Assembly: GCA_964573205.1 (NCBI GenBank)
Contig: CAZNIT010000047.1
Span: forward strand, 777-64,776
DNA from: an uncultured Sulfurospirillum sp.
GTDB taxonomy: Bacteria; Campylobacterota; Campylobacteria; Campylobacterales; QNZT01
Length of the DNA stretch: 64,000 bases
Direction of reading: 5' to 3'
In this document: piece by piece, positions 18,440-26,242 of the stretch
How positions within the stretch are numbered: position 1 is the stretch's first letter
Layout: every line of letters starts with the position of its first letter
Notes under the pieces: generated by a model
The model's input: the letters and a program-made list of their open reading frames with translations, nothing else
Told to the model about the DNA's origin: nothing
Databases searched by the model: none
Position numbers and translations under genes: made by a program

Positions 18440-19348
18440 TTAATTTGTATTAAAGTTTTGCTTATTACAGTTAACAATCGCCGCACCCTCTCTCAAGCCG
18501 TCGTCTATTACCGTCAATTTTTCGTACCCGAAAAGATAAACTATCTCGTACAACAGTTTCACACCTGCTACTATCAACTCTTCTCTTCCGACTCCAACCC
18601 ATCTGATTCTCTCTTCTTTATCCATAGAAATCAACTTTCGCAAAGCATCTTTCATATCTTTACGACTTAACACGAATCCGTTTACTTTTCGATAATCGTA
18701 ATGCTCATAATCGATCCCGCTCAAAAAAGACGCTATCGTCGTCGGCGTTCCGGACGAGCCTATAAAAATATCCGGTTTTTTCTTTACGCTCTTTGCAAAC
18801 GATGCCAATTTCGCACACTCTCTTTTTATCCCTTTCTCAAGTTCTCGTAAACCGTACTTTTCGACGACTGTAACTATTCCGATATCGAAACTTTCGCAAA
18901 TGACTTCGTCTTCGTATTTAACGACAACTTCACATGAGCCTCCGCCAAGATCCAAAAGAATATAGCTCTTAGTATCCTGTTTCAGTTTTTTAAGTCTGTT
19001 TTCCACCGCTACTCTTGTATATTCGGCCTCCTTTTTCGAATCGATAATCTCAAAAAAAATCCCGGTTTTTGCGTAAATGGTCTCTATCACGAATGCGGCG
19101 TTTTTCGCCATTCTCAAAGCTGCGGTGGCGACGGCTTTGTAATTTGCGTTCTCGCAATCATCGAAATTTTTTTTCGCTTCCAAAATAGCTTCGATAACTC
19201 GATCTAGCGTCTTTTGCGATATCTCCCCTGCTGCTTCTATCCCTTGCGCCGTTTTGACGATCTTTTCGAACTCTTTTACTCTCTCTTTCGTTTTGCAATC
19301 AATCTTCACCACTCTTAAAGTGTTTGAACCCAAATCACACCCTAGCAT
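18440..19348 (-). CDS. Ppx/GppA phosphatase family protein
   Basis: CDLGSNTLR, VATAALR, LDLGGGSCE and DDGLREG. Confidence 0.9.
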   Translation of the reverse strand: MLGCDLGSNTLRVVKIDCKTKERVKEFEKIVKTAQGIEAAGEISQKTLDRVIEAILEAKKNFDDCENANYKAVATAALRMAKNAAFVIETIYAKTGIFFEIIDSKKEAEYTRVAVENRLKKLKQDTKSYILLDLGGGSCEVVVKYEDEVICESFDIGIVTVVEKYGLRELEKGIKRECAKLASFAKSVKKKPDIFIGSSGTPTTIASFLSGIDYEHYDYRKVNGFVLSRKDMKDALRKLISMDKEERIRWVGVGREELIVAGVKLLYEIVYLFGYEKLTVIDDGLREGAAIVNCNKQNFNTN

Positions 19349-19398
19349 TATCAACCTTTTGTTATAATCGGGCAATAATACAATACAAAAGGTTAGAA

Positions 19399-20181
19399 AT
19401 GTTACTCGGAGTCAATATAGACCATATCGCCGTTTTAAGAGAAGCCAGAAAAATCAACGATCCCGATCCTCTTGAGGCACTCTTCATAGCCGCTAGAGCC
19501 GGTGCCGACCAAATCACCATACACCTAAGAGAGGATCGTCGCCATATTCATGACGAAGACGTCAAAAGAATCATTCAAAACTCTCCGCTTCCCGTCAATC
19601 TGGAATGCTCCGTAGATCCCGACATCGTGGAAACGGTAGCTAAGCTCAGACCGCACCGAGCCACCTTCGTACCGGAAAAGAGAGAAGAGATCACTACCGA
19701 GGGAGGATTGCAGATGAATGAACCGAACTTCTCCAACCTCGACAAAGCGGTTCACTATCTAAAAGCCAAAGAGATAGAGACCTCTTTGTTTATAGATCCG
19801 ACAGACGAAGCGGTAAGAGGAGCTAAAACCATAGGCGTAGAATGGGTTGAGTTTCATACCGGCACTTACGCGAATATTTACGCGATGCTCTTTACGAACC
19901 TCTCAAAAACCAATCACAACATAAAAGAGTTGGATTTAGAGAGAAGCAAACTGAAAAAACTTCTAAAACAATCGCTTCAAAAGTTACGAAACGCTTGTGA
20001 ATATGCAGATGAATTCGGATTAAACATCGCGGCGGGACACGGGCTGAACTTTCAAAATGTCGTCGCTATTACGAAAATAGAAGGGATTAAAGAGTTGAAT
20101 ATCGGCCAAAGCATCATTGCCAGAAGCATCTATACCGGTCTTGAAAACTCCATAAAAGAGATGGTGGCTCTTATAAAATGA
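19399..20181 (+). CDS. pdxJ: Pyridoxine 5'-phosphate synthase
   Basis: LGVNIDHIAVLREAR, ITIHLREDRRHI, VPEKREEITTEGG and AAGHGL. Confidence 0.97.
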   Translation: MLLGVNIDHIAVLREARKINDPDPLEALFIAARAGADQITIHLREDRRHIHDEDVKRIIQNSPLPVNLECSVDPDIVETVAKLRPHRATFVPEKREEITTEGGLQMNEPNFSNLDKAVHYLKAKEIETSLFIDPTDEAVRGAKTIGVEWVEFHTGTYANIYAMLFTNLSKTNHNIKELDLERSKLKKLLKQSLQKLRNACEYADEFGLNIAAGHGLNFQNVVAITKIEGIKELNIGQSIIARSIYTGLENSIKEMVALIK

Positions 20182-21110
20182 AAATCGCCGTAAGCATCGG
20201 AGATCTAAACGGAGCGGGCATTGAAATTGCTCTTAGATCGCATAAGATCGTAAGCGAATTTTGCAACCCGATATATATGGTAAGCAATCGCATGTTGAAA
20301 GAGGCTTGCGAATTGTTAAGATTTCAAATACCGACCGATTTTGAAAATGTAGAAATAGGCGATGATTTCAAAATCACGCCCTCTCGCGTTACGGCCGAAA
20401 GCGGAAAATATTCATACGAATCATTTATAAAAGCTCTAACTTTTGCGAAAGAAAAAAAAGCGGACGGAATCTGCACGCTTCCCGTCAACAAAGAGGCTTG
20501 GGCGAAAGCGGGTATAAAATATAAAGGGCATACGGACGCACTAAAAGATATATTTAAAAAAGAGGCGATCATGATGATCGGTTGCGATAAACTTTTTACG
20601 GCTTTATATACTCACCACATACCGTTAAAAGAGGTTCCCTCAAAGATAGAAGCGAAAAAATTGAGCGAATTTATGTTAAATCTCTATAAAGAGATAAAAG
20701 AGGAGAAAATAGGGGTTTTGGGACTGAATCCCCATGCCGGTGACGGAGGAATTTTGGGCGTCGAAGAGAATACGATAAAAAAAGCGATCGAATATGTAAA
20801 TTCCAAACTGCTTGAAGAGGTGTTCGTAGGTCCACTTGTTCCTGATACGGCTTTTACTCCTCATATGAGGGAGAATATAAAGTATTTTGTATGTATGTAT
20901 CATGATCAAGCACTTATTGCGGTAAAAAGCCTCTATTTCGAAGAGAGTATTAACGTAAGCCTAAATCTTCCGATAATCAGAACAAGCGTCGATCATGGCA
21001 CGGCATACGATAAAGCATATAAAAATAAACCTCTATCGAACGTTAGCTACATAAATGCCCTAAAAGAAGCCGTACGACTTGTCAATAAAAGAAAAGAATT
21101 TAAAATATAA
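20178..21110 (+). CDS. pdxA: 4-hydroxythreonine-4-phosphate dehydrogenase
   Basis: SIGDLNGAGIE, GHTD, GLNPHAG, MYHDQ and RTSVDHGTAYD. Confidence 0.96.
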   Translation: MKIAVSIGDLNGAGIEIALRSHKIVSEFCNPIYMVSNRMLKEACELLRFQIPTDFENVEIGDDFKITPSRVTAESGKYSYESFIKALTFAKEKKADGICTLPVNKEAWAKAGIKYKGHTDALKDIFKKEAIMMIGCDKLFTALYTHHIPLKEVPSKIEAKKLSEFMLNLYKEIKEEKIGVLGLNPHAGDGGILGVEENTIKKAIEYVNSKLLEEVFVGPLVPDTAFTPHMRENIKYFVCMYHDQALIAVKSLYFEESINVSLNLPIIRTSVDHGTAYDKAYKNKPLSNVSYINALKEAVRLVNKRKEFKI

Positions 21111-21181
21111 ACTTTTTTTTTAATCAACGGTAAATAATTTTTATAATAACATTTAAGAATTTCATTATTGAAGGATAAATT

Positions 21182-21856
21182 ATGGGACTGCCCGCTTTTG
21201 ACCTGCCGATACCTCCTCTTGGAGTGGAGATTCCGCTTTTGATGCATCCCCCGCTAACGCATTTTGCCGTTGTTCTGCCTATTTTTATACTACTGCTTGA
21301 ACTTATAAATATAATTGTCAAAAGAAGAGGACTCACGGCTACGGCTTTTATCTTCTTCACACTTTTGATAGTTGTATATGTAGCGGCTTTTATTACCGGA
21401 AAAACTGACGCAAAAGAGGCTTTTGACATGCTGACGCAAAACGGACAAGATACTCTAAAAGAGCATAAACTAATAGGAATATATTTGATGCTCTCGACCG
21501 TGGTACTCGTGTTTGCCAAACTTTTTTCAATGGCGATCAAAAAATGGTGGATGAAACTTATATATCTTCTGATACTGACGGGTTTTGTCGCGGCCGTCCT
21601 CTATCAGGGAAAAGAGGGAGGAGAGTTGGTTTATAAACATGGAGCGAACGTCCAAAGAGTACAAGTTCTGGATGACAAAGTATTCGATCTTGAAGATCAG
21701 ATAGACGACTTGAAAAACCAAGAGAGTACGAAAGAGTCAAATAGTACCCTTACTTCAAAAGAGGATCAAAACGAAACATCTCCCGATCTAAACGATACGA
21801 GTTCAGCCGATAAAATGCTAAACAAGCTGATAAATTCGGCAAAAAATAAAGAGTAA
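21182..21856 (+). CDS. DUF2231-type membrane protein with a C-terminal coiled/low-complexity tail
   Basis: MHPPLTHFAVVLP, HKLIG and YQGKEGGELVYKHG. Confidence 0.7.
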   Translation: MGLPAFDLPIPPLGVEIPLLMHPPLTHFAVVLPIFILLLELINIIVKRRGLTATAFIFFTLLIVVYVAAFITGKTDAKEAFDMLTQNGQDTLKEHKLIGIYLMLSTVVLVFAKLFSMAIKKWWMKLIYLLILTGFVAAVLYQGKEGGELVYKHGANVQRVQVLDDKVFDLEDQIDDLKNQESTKESNSTLTSKEDQNETSPDLNDTSSADKMLNKLINSAKNKE

Positions 21857-22065: not shown

Positions 22066-23925
22066 ATGAGGAAAATTACAAAAATCTTCCTTTTGGCATC
22101 TATGCCCATCATGTGTTATGCTCAGCAGGACATGAATAAACTATTAAGCCTATATAAATCACAAGCGGAACTCTCCAGCATCACCAAAAGTGAATCAGCC
22201 GGTTTTGTCGATATATATACCAGAGAAGATATAGAGAAGATGCAAGCGCATACACTATCGGACATATTGAAACTGTTTACTATTCCAAACGTCTCACGAA
22301 CGGCTACGAATATAACCTTTTATACAAAACCTTCAAACAAAAGCATGCCTCAATACAGCATACGCCTATATATAAACGATCATGATTTTTCTACAAGTTC
22401 TTACGGAAGTGATGCCGTTTTATGGAGCGGTATGACTCTTGACAATATAGACCACATAGTTGTATATAAAAGTACTTCTTCCGTCGAGTTCGGGAACGAA
22501 CCCTCCACGGTCGTTATAAAACTATATACCAAAAAAGCGGAAAAAGAGGAAGGCGGGAAGATAAAACTCTCGGCGGATCAAAAAGGAAGCTATCGTGCAA
22601 GCAGCTACTTCGCACACACTACGATGAATAATTTTTCGTACTTTTTTTATGTTAATAAAAACGATATAAACGCAAAAAAATATTATAACGAAGGATACGA
22701 ACTAAATAGCGATACGGATAGTAAAAATCTTTATGCCAACTTCTTTTATAACAACTGGAGATTTGAAGTCGGACACTACAGCCAAAATTCGGGAAGTTTT
22801 CTCGGACTTGGCGAAAAGGCCAAACCTTATGGAAACGGACTCTATGCAAAACATAACTTTTGGCATATAACGAAAAAACTTGATAACGACATAAAACTTC
22901 AACTCTCGTACGATTGTACGACATACAACCTTCAAAATAGAGACGACAGCGGAATTTACGCCGGCTCGGCAGGTTCGGTGTCAAACTACGATCTCGCATA
23001 TGACGATACGGTAGCCTCGGCGATAGCGGAGAAGATTTTTAAGACGAAAAAAAATAAACTTTTATTGGGTGCTTTCGTCAAAATCAAAGATTCAAAAACT
23101 AACGGAGCATTTGACTCGACTAAGACAAGTTATAAAAACAGGCTCAATCTCTATTCGTTATATGCAGAAAACAGTTACAGCTTCAACTATACGACTATGT
23201 TCGTAGCGTCTCTTAAAGGCGACTTTTATCGATACGACAAAGTAGTAAAATCTCAAGACGAATATATAGCTAGAGTTGGAATTATCAAGAATATCGATAA
23301 ATTTCAACTTAAAGCGTTTTATACCAAAACATATTATACCGTCCCTATGACTTATCTATATAGTACGAACGATACGCCCTATATAACAAATCCCGATCTA
23401 AACTATACGAAGCCGACACTCGTCACTCTGGGGGTTCGATATAAAAACGACAAGCATGAAATCGACGCTAGAGCGGCATTTATAAGTGTTACCGACAAAC
23501 TTATATATAAAAGCGAAGGTTTTAAAAGTATGTCGAAAAGTTATGATCAATACGAAGTGAAATATACATACAAAATAGATCATGCAAACAAAATTAGTTT
23601 TGATCTATATACGGGTAAAAATTCACTAGGTCTTGAATTCAGCCCGAAAAACGGCGGTGATATAGTCGCCTTTAACAGATTCGGAAAATTCGACCTTTTC
23701 AATCAATTAAGCTATAAAAGAGCGTACAGCGCTTTTGGAGTGGATGTCAAAAGTTCATACGACTACAACTTCGCACTCAAATATCATGTAAATCCCGATT
23801 TTGCCGTCGGCATCAAGGGAGAAAATATCTTTAACAGAGGTTTTGAGCAAGCCTATAAAAGTTTAGGCGATTCTATACCGGTTTATGATAGAAAATTTTG
23901 GGTGAATATGGAGTATCTGTTTTGA
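22066..23925 (+). CDS. TonB-dependent receptor-like outer-membrane protein (plug plus barrel)
   Basis: Signal peptide; plug IYTREDIEKM..HTLSDILK...LYINDH...IDHIVVYK; beta-rich body; C-terminal Phe (MEYLF). Confidence 0.8.
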   Translation: MRKITKIFLLASMPIMCYAQQDMNKLLSLYKSQAELSSITKSESAGFVDIYTREDIEKMQAHTLSDILKLFTIPNVSRTATNITFYTKPSNKSMPQYSIRLYINDHDFSTSSYGSDAVLWSGMTLDNIDHIVVYKSTSSVEFGNEPSTVVIKLYTKKAEKEEGGKIKLSADQKGSYRASSYFAHTTMNNFSYFFYVNKNDINAKKYYNEGYELNSDTDSKNLYANFFYNNWRFEVGHYSQNSGSFLGLGEKAKPYGNGLYAKHNFWHITKKLDNDIKLQLSYDCTTYNLQNRDDSGIYAGSAGSVSNYDLAYDDTVASAIAEKIFKTKKNKLLLGAFVKIKDSKTNGAFDSTKTSYKNRLNLYSLYAENSYSFNYTTMFVASLKGDFYRYDKVVKSQDEYIARVGIIKNIDKFQLKAFYTKTYYTVPMTYLYSTNDTPYITNPDLNYTKPTLVTLGVRYKNDKHEIDARAAFISVTDKLIYKSEGFKSMSKSYDQYEVKYTYKIDHANKISFDLYTGKNSLGLEFSPKNGGDIVAFNRFGKFDLFNQLSYKRAYSAFGVDVKSSYDYNFALKYHVNPDFAVGIKGENIFNRGFEQAYKSLGDSIPVYDRKFWVNMEYLF

Positions 23926-24347
23926 AAAAGATTATATTTTTATTACTGGCATTGACGATAATGTCATGGTCATCGGCATTACAGACTCAAAGAGAAATTT
24001 ACAAGACTATTTTAGGTGCGATATTTCCAAATAAGCACACCATCTATATTTGGCTTGACGATCCGAATAAAAGAGATATATTTTCAGATATAAAAAATAT
24101 AAAGATAGTCACAAATAGAGAAAATGCGGATATTTTGATCGTATATCACACTTTCGATATAAATGCGACGGATAAAAAGATTTTTGCCGACGGATATCTG
24201 GTGTTTAAACACTATAAAGAGAAGATCATAGGAGGCTTTTATTGGCAAAAAGGAAGACCTAATCTTGTCTTTATACGAAAAAATCTTGAAGATTTCAACA
24301 TATCGCTACCTAAAAATCTCAAAGAGTTTATAGAGGATAACTTTTGA
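23922..24347 (+). CDS. Periplasmic YfiR/DUF4154-like protein
   Basis: TTG start overlaps the receptor stop (TTGA, SD GGAG); signal peptide; ADILIV and IGGFYWQKGRPNLVFIRKNL...ISLP recall the YfiR C-terminus. Confidence 0.5.
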   Translation: MKKIIFLLLALTIMSWSSALQTQREIYKTILGAIFPNKHTIYIWLDDPNKRDIFSDIKNIKIVTNRENADILIVYHTFDINATDKKIFADGYLVFKHYKEKIIGGFYWQKGRPNLVFIRKNLEDFNISLPKNLKEFIEDNF

Positions 24348-26242
24348 ATTCAATCAACAGGTTGTATATCGTTTTAATCTTGACCATTTTTATCTCGATA
24401 CTCTATCTTTATCATTCTGTATCAGATATTCATGATAAAATGGTCAACAATATCGAAAAAATCTTTATCCTCAAAGCCGGACAATTCGCGAAAAACATAG
24501 ATGAAGAGATAAAAAACCATATAGATAAAGATCTATATAAAACCTTAAAAGAAAATCCGGGATTAAGAGAGGTGCTTGAGCATACTTTTTCGGTAGTGAT
24601 CACCCCTTCGTTTAAATATATATATGTTTTATATAAAGACTCCAACGGAAAATATCGTTATCTTCTTGACGGCAGTAAAGAGGATAAAGGAGAATTCAAC
24701 CAAAAACTAAACGTCAATGAAGAGAAGTGGGATCAAGCGTACAATACGCTAAAACCTCAAATAATACTTCAAAAAAATATTGACGGTCTATGGATTACAT
24801 ACCTAAAACCGATAATTTACGATAACCGTGTCGAAGGTGTAATCGCCATAGATTTTTCGACGAATCTCTCCATTTACATCAGTAAACTCATAGCTCCTAT
24901 TCAAAATGTATTTTTATATATTTTCGCGGCTATCGTAGTACTTCTTTCCGTACTTCTATATCAGGTGATCCTAAACATAAAAACGAAAAAAGAGAGTATT
25001 ACCGACTCTTTAACCCAAGTTTACAACCGTACATTTTTAAGAGATTTTCTAAAAAAAATACATCCCGAAAAATATCAGATAGCGATGCTGGATATCGATT
25101 TTTTCAAAAAGATCAACGACAACTACGGTCATAAAGCGGGAGACTATATACTAAGCGAAGTGGCTATCATTCTTAAAAAGATCGTACGCGAAAAAGATAT
25201 AATCATAAGATTCGGAGGCGAGGAGTTTTTGATATTTTTTTATAAACTTCCAAACGATGAGGATATAGCGGCTTCCATTTCACACAGAATAAGAGAAGAA
25301 CTCGAAAACAGCAAATTCGTATATGACGATACATCCATCAAAGTTACGACTTCAATCGGCGTAATGCTTCATCCCCAAAGATGCAAAAGCGTCTCCGACG
25401 CTATAAAAAAGGCCGACCAGCTGCTATACATAGCGAAAAAAGAGGGAAGAAACAAAGTCGTACTCGAATATGACGCCATTAAAGCCATCTCAACCGAAAC
25501 AAACTCCATATATGAAGTGAAAGAGGCGCTTGACGACAACAGAATCATCTGTCACTATCAACCTATAATAAATCTGGACAGTTGTGAAGTCGTAAAATAC
25601 GAAGCGCTCGTTCGCATGGTTTCAAAAGATGGAACGATAATCTATCCGAATAATTTTCTCGATGCCATCAGCGGTACGAATGTCTATAACGACCTGACGA
25701 AAAGAGTGATCGATATCGCATTCGAGACGATTAAAAAAGAGAAAGTTTCACTTAGCATAAACCTAAATTTATCTGATATCCTAAACAACATGATCTATAA
25801 AATCGTTATAGATGAGATAGTTCAAAACAAAGAGGTCGCAAAATGGCTGACGATCGAACTGTTGGAATATGAACAACTAAATACCGATATTTTGAAACAA
25901 AGACTATATGAAATTAAATCATACGGCATTAAAATAGCTTTGGATGATTTTGGAAGCGGTTATTCCAACTTCGCTATCTTTCAAAGTTATCCTATCGACA
26001 TACTTAAAATAGACGGTTCGCTCATAAAAGAGATAGATAGTTCGAAAGTATCATACACTATCATAGAGTCGATTGCGCTTTTTAGCAGAAAACTGGAGAT
26101 AGAAACCGTGGCGGAGTTTATCCATAACGATAAAGTTCTAAAAATCATTAAAGATCTTGGCATCAGCTACGGACAGGGGTTTTATATAGGAGAGCCGGTT
26201 GAAAAAATCGTAGAGCGAAAAAATGAGACGATAGACGCCTAA
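24344..26242 (+). CDS. Membrane-bound GGDEF-EAL c-di-GMP enzyme with a periplasmic sensor domain
   Basis: Two TM helices; DIDFFKKINDNYGH, RxxD (REKD) plus GGEEF, EALVR, DDFGSGYS and GQGFY. Confidence 0.93.
   Translation: MNSINRLYIVLILTIFISILYLYHSVSDIHDKMVNNIEKIFILKAGQFAKNIDEEIKNHIDKDLYKTLKENPGLREVLEHTFSVVITPSFKYIYVLYKDSNGKYRYLLDGSKEDKGEFNQKLNVNEEKWDQAYNTLKPQIILQKNIDGLWITYLKPIIYDNRVEGVIAIDFSTNLSIYISKLIAPIQNVFLYIFAAIVVLLSVLLYQVILNIKTKKESITDSLTQVYNRTFLRDFLKKIHPEKYQIAMLDIDFFKKINDNYGHKAGDYILSEVAIILKKIVREKDIIIRFGGEEFLIFFYKLPNDEDIAASISHRIREELENSKFVYDDTSIKVTTSIGVMLHPQRCKSVSDAIKKADQLLYIAKKEGRNKVVLEYDAIKAISTETNSIYEVKEALDDNRIICHYQPIINLDSCEVVKYEALVRMVSKDGTIIYPNNFLDAISGTNVYNDLTKRVIDIAFETIKKEKVSLSINLNLSDILNNMIYKIVIDEIVQNKEVAKWLTIELLEYEQLNTDILKQRLYEIKSYGIKIALDDFGSGYSNFAIFQSYPIDILKIDGSLIKEIDSSKVSYTIIESIALFSRKLEIETVAEFIHNDKVLKIIKDLGISYGQGFYIGEPVEKIVERKNETIDA

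Follow-up and report, generated by a model that had tools for sequence, protein, structure and literature searches.

Three overlapping genes, here called A, B and C, lie in a 64,000-nucleotide (nt) stretch of contig CAZNIT010000047.1 (assembly GCA_964573205.1; this whole stretch is referred to as the window) from an uncultured Sulfurospirillum sp., a hydrothermal-vent bacterium of the Campylobacterota. They encode a plug/barrel protein of the outer membrane, a small periplasmic protein and an inner-membrane enzyme with the domains that make and break down cyclic di-GMP (c-di-GMP). The A-B-C arrangement is not due to chance, and the trio probably relays a cell-surface signal to c-di-GMP. The genes and their junctions are as follows (positions are those of the window).

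22066-23925, plus strand: gene A (619 amino acids, ATG start), outer-membrane plug/barrel protein, divergent and similar to TonB-dependent receptors
23922-23925, plus strand: A/B overlap TTGA (start of B and stop of A, read from the sequence)
23922-24347, plus strand: gene B (141 amino acids from the TTG at 23922), secreted protein of an unannotated family
24344-24347, plus strand: B/C overlap TTGA (start of C and stop of B, read from the sequence)
24344-26242, plus strand: gene C (632 amino acids, TTG start), inner-membrane enzyme consisting of transmembrane helix, sensor, transmembrane helix, GGDEF and EAL, with no HAMP domain

In each TTGA a TTG start codon is merged with the TGA stop codon of the preceding gene. 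That two consecutive overlaps of this kind join the three genes had been claimed in an earlier reading of the DNA (the sequence-only reading), and the coordinates are exact. Shine-Dalgarno-like sequences precede both internal starts: GGAG (23910-23913) is found 8 nt 5' of the start of B, and AGAGGA (24332-24337) 6 nt 5' of the start of C. The list of open reading frames (ORFs) allows B to begin at either 23898 or 23922; the TTG at 23922 (product MKKII...) is taken as the real start because homologues (L005 and L022) have ATG at this position.

A survey of loci, in which one genome per species was scanned, gave 22 distinct related loci. In all 22, as far as the contigs reach, A is upstream and C downstream of B (tblastn). 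A and B overlap by 4 nt (TTGA) in most of these loci; two others have an overlap of 1 nt, and in one the genes are separated by a short spacer that carries a Shine-Dalgarno sequence. The B/C junction is mostly ATGA, GTGA or TTGA. The 35 close homologues of B all come from Campylobacterota (Hydrogenimonas, Sulfurimonas, Sulfurospirillum and metagenome-assembled genomes (MAGs) from vents), and the trio is present in the complete genomes of three cultured strains: Hydrogenimonas sp. (AP019005.1), Nitratiruptor sp. SB155-2 (AP009178.1) and Sulfurimonas paralvinellae (CP041406.1). Among distant members of the B family, three are situated directly upstream of a GGDEF-EAL gene – one of them with an ORF of ~640 amino acids upstream – and every member looked up that has neighbours on its contig directly precedes a GGDEF gene. 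The genes that flank the trio differ from genome to genome. Given the same order, the same overlaps and varying flanks, the three genes are a self-contained cassette whose output is always of one type. Conservation of the trio had been proposed as a check on the sequence-only reading: order is kept in the 22 loci, in the three cultured strains and among distant members.

Some individual loci deserve comment. A fourth distant relative (L164:3053-5004) has a barrel gene that is apparently split into ORFs of 479 and 171 amino acids, which may reflect a frameshift or an assembly error, and the end of the contig cuts the gene after B. A 2.5-kb contig carrying the trio (L025, DQTE01000003.1) is binned in a MAG named 'Crocinitomix sp.' (Bacteroidota); all other carriers being Campylobacterota, this contig is probably mis-binned.

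The output of the cassette is encoded by C, in which three domains are distinguished.

24416-24904, plus strand: periplasmic sensor of C (approximately residues 25-187), a single Cache/PDC-like domain
24998-25456, plus strand: GGDEF domain of C (residues 219-371, Pfam), with REKD I-site and GGEEF at residues 282-295
25517-26197, plus strand: EAL domain of C (residues 392-618, Pfam), with EALVR, DDFGSGYS, KID, E and Q kept

The motifs REKD-x5-GGEEF, EALVR, DDFGSGYS, KID and QG are present, and RxxD-x5-GGEEF is invariant in 23 of the 23 C sequences compared. These conserved catalytic motifs predict that C has cyclase activity (GGDEF) and that in most species it has phosphodiesterase activity (EAL) as well. 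In three loci (L020, L021 and L028) C is 378-382 codons long, stopping after the GGDEF domain, and an EAL gene is not found nearby. Because RxxD-GGEEF is invariant, and because these three loci keep GGDEF alone, the cyclase appears to be the core output and the phosphodiesterase half dispensable for the cassette. An AlphaFold2 model of residues 1-215 of C (predicted local distance difference test score, pLDDT, 87.3) consists of a transmembrane helix, a long helix, a five-stranded PAS-like sheet and a second transmembrane helix. Its best Foldseek match is the extracellular Cache domain of WalK (template modelling (TM) score 0.66-0.69 by target, expect value (E) ~1e-5), with further matches to RsbU, KinD, Tlp3 and other Cache sensors. 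Ten polar or aromatic residues of the sensor are invariant (Y97, D99, R105, Y106, D109, S111, W129, Y133, T152 and D170): these would fit either a ligand pocket or an interface with a partner protein.

Gene A encodes a protein of BtuB-like size with a Sec-type signal peptide (residues 1-19), a Pfam Plug domain (PF07715, residues 41-144; 33.4 bits against a cut-off of 23.9) and the C-terminus ...NMEYLF. The barrel domain PF00593 gives no match in A of the window at E≤0.1; several homologues of A carry it. The sole NCBIfam match of A is to NF053590, the TOL_0244 family of TonB-dependent receptors (E 2.7e-5, residues 43-384), at 23 bits compared with a cut-off of 645. All eight homologues of A that were compared match this model weakly, seven of them matching the BtuB model TIGR01779 more strongly, and for most members of the A family tested the weak match extends past the plug into the barrel. 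The sequence-only reading had described the three products as a plug/barrel protein, a 141-amino-acid periplasmic protein and an enzyme with GGEEF, RxxD and EAL motifs, and the Pfam domains and motifs are indeed present. No STN signalling domain was detected in A by Pfam and there is no adjacent sigma or anti-sigma gene: identity of A as a TonB-dependent transducer of the FecA type was therefore rejected.

Directly after the signal peptide, A carries a short extension.

22123-22203, plus strand: conserved periplasmic N-terminal peptide of A (residues 20-46; consensus QEDLDSLLNAYKKESDLSKITKKESAG from 115 homologues)

Across these 115 homologues the extension is among the most conserved stretches of A. 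A canonical TonB box (a hydrophobic strand, for example xTxVVTA) is not there before the plug: its position is taken by the charged sequence AYKKESD, for which the family consensus is YKKESDL.

The product of B has a Sec-type signal peptide and no lipobox, and its mature part, as read from the translation, is without cysteine. It matches no Pfam or NCBIfam model. A profile of the family, searched against 1.84 billion representatives, finds at least 286 clusters at 50% identity, almost all of them of 130-160 amino acids. Within the protein one motif stands out.

24231-24266, plus strand: B motif GGFYWQKGRPNL (residues 104-115), invariant in the alignment of close homologues and a beta-hairpin in the model

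Strands 104-109 and 112-118 of the model span this motif, and the wider family alignment shows almost no variation at G104, W108, K110, G111 and R112. The AlphaFold2 model of B (pLDDT 88.9) is a small alpha/beta sandwich. Its best Foldseek match in the PDB is RmSBP, a single-domain substrate-binding protein (SBP) of Rhodothermus marinus (E 1.8e-4, TM 0.51); the L-Trp- and Phe-binding proteins 3lft and 3lkv come next, ranked above YfiR, of which more than 10 chains match (E 0.008-0.07, probability 0.82-0.99, TM 0.45-0.53). The model used in these searches includes the signal peptide, which lowers TM. The same structural neighbours were reported for YfiR itself by its crystallographers (PMC4887326). 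From these matches the predicted fold of B is that of YfiR and the single-lobe binding proteins. Whether RmSBP might be a DUF4154 protein was also considered and rejected: a DUF4154 protein of the cassettes described below matches YfiR in the PDB and not RmSBP. No sequence similarity is detectable between RmSBP and B.

Cassettes built on a comparable plan are known from databases. A trio curated by NCBI comprises NF053590 (TOL_0244 receptor), NF053591 (TOL_0243 YfiR-like periplasmic protein) and NF053592 (YfiR-like-associated sensor histidine kinase). To obtain such loci, a DNA pattern for KAAFLYNFAKF was used to fetch DUF4154 cassettes: this gave 120 metagenomic stretches, of which 80 were examined (L038-L117). 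In 21 of the 80 the DUF4154 gene is immediately preceded by an ORF of 560 codons or more. In most such loci the DUF4154 gene is followed by a large sensor gene starting M..R(D/N)(L/I)SI, and an N-terminal peptide (S/D)L(E/D)(E/D)L(M/L)N(I/V)xV is common to the receptors. One locus (L039) matches all three curated models: its receptor has Plug and barrel domains and scores 133 bits with NF053590, its middle protein is above the cut-offs for NF053591 and PF13689, and its third protein is a kinase above the NF053592 cut-off, with CHASE8 and HAMP. The architecture of receptor, YfiR-like protein and sensor is therefore known to annotators; a literature search for receptor plus YfiR-like cassettes found no experimental study.

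The curated trio and that of the window are alike in gene order and in the three cell compartments involved. Their receptors are also alike in having no STN domain and an N-terminal LxxL(L/M)N peptide, which HMMER aligns between A and the DUF4154-cassette receptors (SLEELLNIKVTTAS... in the latter) and which in both is separated from the first plug strand by 24 residues. At the position of the TonB box the two differ, being IxVTTAS-like (IxVTxxS in the curated-trio receptors) in the cassettes and charged in A. The differences extend to family level: A scores 23 bits with a model that demands 645, B matches neither NF053591 nor PF13689, and the sensor of C lacks both NF053592 and CHASE8. The output of the window cassette is always GGDEF(-EAL), whereas that of the curated trio is a kinase. 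Membership of the window trio in NF053590-NF053592 was thus rejected, since no protein reaches its model cut-off and the architecture alone is held in common: each part has a counterpart in the curated cassette at the level of fold or architecture, and none reaches family membership. The relation between the two may possibly be one of very deep divergence or of convergence. The CHASE8 kinase of a DUF4154 cassette and the C sensor of Nitratiruptor both match the N-terminal part of the WalK model NF033092 (weakly, in the case of the Nitratiruptor orthologue), which hints that cassette sensors with CHASE8 and sensors of the C type are distantly related; hhalign of the C sensor against the CHASE8 sensors of the cassettes gives 2.7%.

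We propose that A, B and C are expressed as one operon, which would supply the products in fixed proportions, and that they form a c-di-GMP switch spanning the envelope. A, a plug/barrel of the TonB-dependent-receptor type, would reside in the outer membrane, and C in the inner membrane, with its Cache domain in the periplasm joined to GGDEF by a short linker. Soluble B would bind the Cache domain and hold the output in one state. Binding of an extracellular ligand to A would then expose the N-terminal peptide of A (LxxLLxxY...DLSxxTK, in the place of the TonB box), and the exposed peptide would capture B, much as the stretched N-terminus of YfiB captures YfiR. C would be released and the level of c-di-GMP would change, the direction of the switch and the nature of the ligand being matters of conjecture. 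Evidence counted in favour of this scheme comprises the conserved order and overlaps of the trio, the fold of B, the conserved peptide of A, the Cache sensor, the invariant RxxD-GGEEF and the existence of a curated trio. That B binds the Cache domain, and that the peptide of an occupied A captures B and so alters the balance of cyclase and phosphodiesterase output, has in our estimate about an even chance of being correct. It is a reasonable inference that a ligand-gated barrel here stands in for YfiB. A stricter version, in which the peptide of A, having no TonB box, only reports the ligand to B as adaptor gating Cache-GGDEF-EAL – a TonB-independent and purely allosteric route to c-di-GMP – is speculative, and we consider it doubtful.

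A number of results weigh against the proposal, and most of them concern the likeness of B to YfiR. When 65 diverse members of the B family were compared with PF13689 and the NCBIfam YfiR models (NF053586 and NF053591), none matched at E≤1; the L039 protein, used as positive control, scored 163.6 bits with PF13689 and 152 bits with NF053591. Searches of B against YfiR in the PDB with phmmer and two profiles gave no match. Comparison of profiles by hhalign, a check proposed along with the sequence-only reading, went against kinship: probability was 3.5% with canonical YfiR (a set from E. coli, other enterobacteria, Acinetobacter, Pantoea and Burkholderia) and 0.45% with 77 DUF4154 proteins from cassettes. 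Forced alignments of B and YfiR are collinear and not significant (helix-FP/helix-WP, ADILIVY/ChILFIs, GGFYW hairpin/GGiI.F, I.LP..L/LkiSS.LL). Moreover, the match in fold is moderate (TM ~0.5) and common to ligand-binding proteins that score better (RmSBP). With Pfam, NCBIfam and both profile-profile comparisons negative and the cysteines of YfiR absent, B was rejected as a member of the YfiR/DUF4154 family and is assigned to a family of its own, new and unannotated, that has a YfiR-like fold: of the earlier claim that the middle protein is YfiR-like, predicted fold and position stand and family membership falls. C matches neither CHASE8 nor HAMP in Pfam (nor NF053592 in NCBIfam), and its match to NF007423 (110.8 bits, cut-off 325) covers the GGDEF portion only. 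Identity of C as YfiN/DgcN was rejected, since CHASE8-HAMP is missing and the fold is a single Cache domain resembling that of WalK. As CHASE8 is itself placed in the Cache-like clan (PMC8846402), the C sensor is of the same broad fold class as that of YfiN but of another family. As for A, a hidden Markov model of its family gives 7-41 bits with the cassette receptors, 28 with E. coli BtuB, 8 with FepA and -3 with FhuA, so that A is not clearly nearer to cassette receptors than to BtuB; a specifically closer relation to cassette receptors than to ordinary ones is suggestive from sequence, not decisive. Finally, a search for RNA-seq runs covering the locus returned DNA metagenomes only. The earlier claim of a three-tier signalling unit accordingly holds for a conserved and coupled set of outer-membrane, periplasmic and inner-membrane proteins, and not for a DUF4154 adaptor or a YfiN-like sensor.

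The resemblance of B to binding proteins (RmSBP, 3lft with L-Trp, 3lkv with Phe) also accords with an arrangement in which A transports a small molecule into the periplasm and B binds it. The activity of C would then be changed by docking of either the B-ligand complex or the ligand alone on its Cache domain, as in LuxP-LuxQ and TorT-TorS. The near-invariant W-x-K-G-R of B resembles a site for an anion or an aromatic ligand, the invariant Cache residues are typical of a small-molecule pocket, and single-domain SBP genes have been reported beside chemoreceptor genes (PMC10805632). Yet A lacks the canonical TonB box that active import needs, none of the loci examined has genes for an ATP-binding cassette (ABC) transporter or for other uptake beside the trio, and a single lobe cannot close on a ligand as two-lobe binding proteins do. 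Import followed by sensing is the main rival and strikes us as rather unlikely, though to be taken seriously. Strict co-inheritance and translational coupling would likewise fit an obligatory structural partner: B might be a periplasmic chaperone, or an assembly or stability factor for A or C, with C sensing the cue directly through its Cache domain. The B-type fold is not, however, known among chaperones of outer-membrane proteins, and the conserved surface motif of B and the conserved peptide of A suggest specific, regulated contacts; we regard such a role as improbable. That the three genes merely lie side by side, A being an ordinary nutrient receptor, B a small protein with no relation to it and C a c-di-GMP enzyme acting on its own, is difficult to reconcile with an order and overlaps kept in all loci examined amid unrelated flanks, or with the invariable position of B-family genes directly before GGDEF genes, and it seems to us very improbable. 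Conservation of the coupling and of the surface motifs is what makes both of these last explanations unlikely.

Genes around the trio in the window are of the housekeeping kind (pdxJ, pdxA, DUF2231, Ate/Bpt, hexapeptide transferase, MlaE and FliL). No TonB, ExbBD or sigma gene is found within ~8 kb, and the earlier statement that no sigma factor or TonB gene is adjacent agrees with this annotation. A scan for promoters and terminators gave nothing above chance in the AT-rich DNA of the locus. Just upstream of the trio, at 19324-21110, are pdxJ and pdxA for vitamin B6 synthesis, and vitamin B6 is a weak binder of P. aeruginosa YfiR (PMC4887326). These genes were rejected as part of the system: because flanks differ in all other genomes, the adjacency is taken as coincidence. 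Two antisense ORFs of low complexity or odd composition, at 21124-21540 (minus strand, 138 amino acids, inside the DUF2231 gene) and 22652-22999 (minus strand, 115 amino acids, inside gene A), are probably not genes. In Sulfurimonas paralvinellae (CP041406.1) a YajQ-family gene (PF04461; L031:10302-10799) directly follows the trio. Members of the YajQ family are reported to bind c-di-GMP in other bacteria, and the protein might be a local effector in that species.

The way in which an outer-membrane receptor passes a signal across the periplasm is, to our knowledge, known in detail for two cases only, sigma/anti-sigma transducers and the YfiBNR stress system. Cassettes of receptor, adaptor and membrane sensor are widespread and curated in databases, and since the concept is already catalogued for DUF4154 cassettes the window trio is not categorically new. 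We view it as a strongly diverged Campylobacterota counterpart of the curated trio, built around an unannotated family. What is new is a compact variant restricted to Campylobacterota, with an unannotated adaptor family, a Cache domain wired directly to GGDEF-EAL and a receptor that has no canonical TonB box. Among the forms in this analysis it is the most compact, its three genes overlapping, its output being of one fixed kind and HAMP being absent; this compactness, the cultured and sequenced carriers and a family of that size make the trio a practical entry point for studying whether a plug/barrel protein can control c-di-GMP and in what way, and also for asking which cue drives attachment in vent chemolithoautotrophs. 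If the stricter, purely allosteric version of the switch is real, it would be a TonB-independent route distinct from FecA-type sigma signalling and from envelope-stress sensing by YfiBNR, and could govern attachment to surfaces by chemolithoautotrophs of hydrothermal vents.

Of known systems, YfiBNR (TpbB/DgcN; P. aeruginosa and E. coli) and HmsCDE (Yersinia) have the same logic: an operon of three tiers, from outer membrane through periplasm to cyclase. The likeness to YfiBNR includes the predicted fold of B and a cyclase with an RxxD I-site. The stretched N-terminus of YfiB, the outer-membrane partner, fits into a pocket on a conserved C-terminal surface of YfiR, and this pocket overlaps the site at which the cyclase YfiN is bound (PMC4887326). 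The differences are that gene order is yfiR-yfiN-yfiB instead of A-B-C, that the outer-membrane part is an OmpA-like lipoprotein instead of a plug/barrel, and that C has a Cache sensor without HAMP, plus EAL, where YfiN has CHASE8-HAMP. B is ~30 residues shorter than YfiR and has no cysteines, whereas YfiR of P. aeruginosa has the disulfides Cys71-Cys110 and Cys145-Cys152 (PMC4887326). Searching plasmids with YfiR (tblastn) recovered canonical YfiRNB operons only. RmSBP (PDB 5z6v, 6k1y and 8wgl) is, like B, a small secreted protein of a single alpha/beta lobe, and genes for single-domain SBPs of its type adjoin those for chemoreceptors, which are membrane sensors (PMC10805632); unlike B, it has no described outer-membrane partner. 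The Cache domain of WalK (YycG) resembles the C sensor in fold and is regulated by the accessory proteins YycH and YycI, but WalK is a Gram-positive kinase and not a c-di-GMP enzyme, and its partners are membrane-anchored and unrelated to B.

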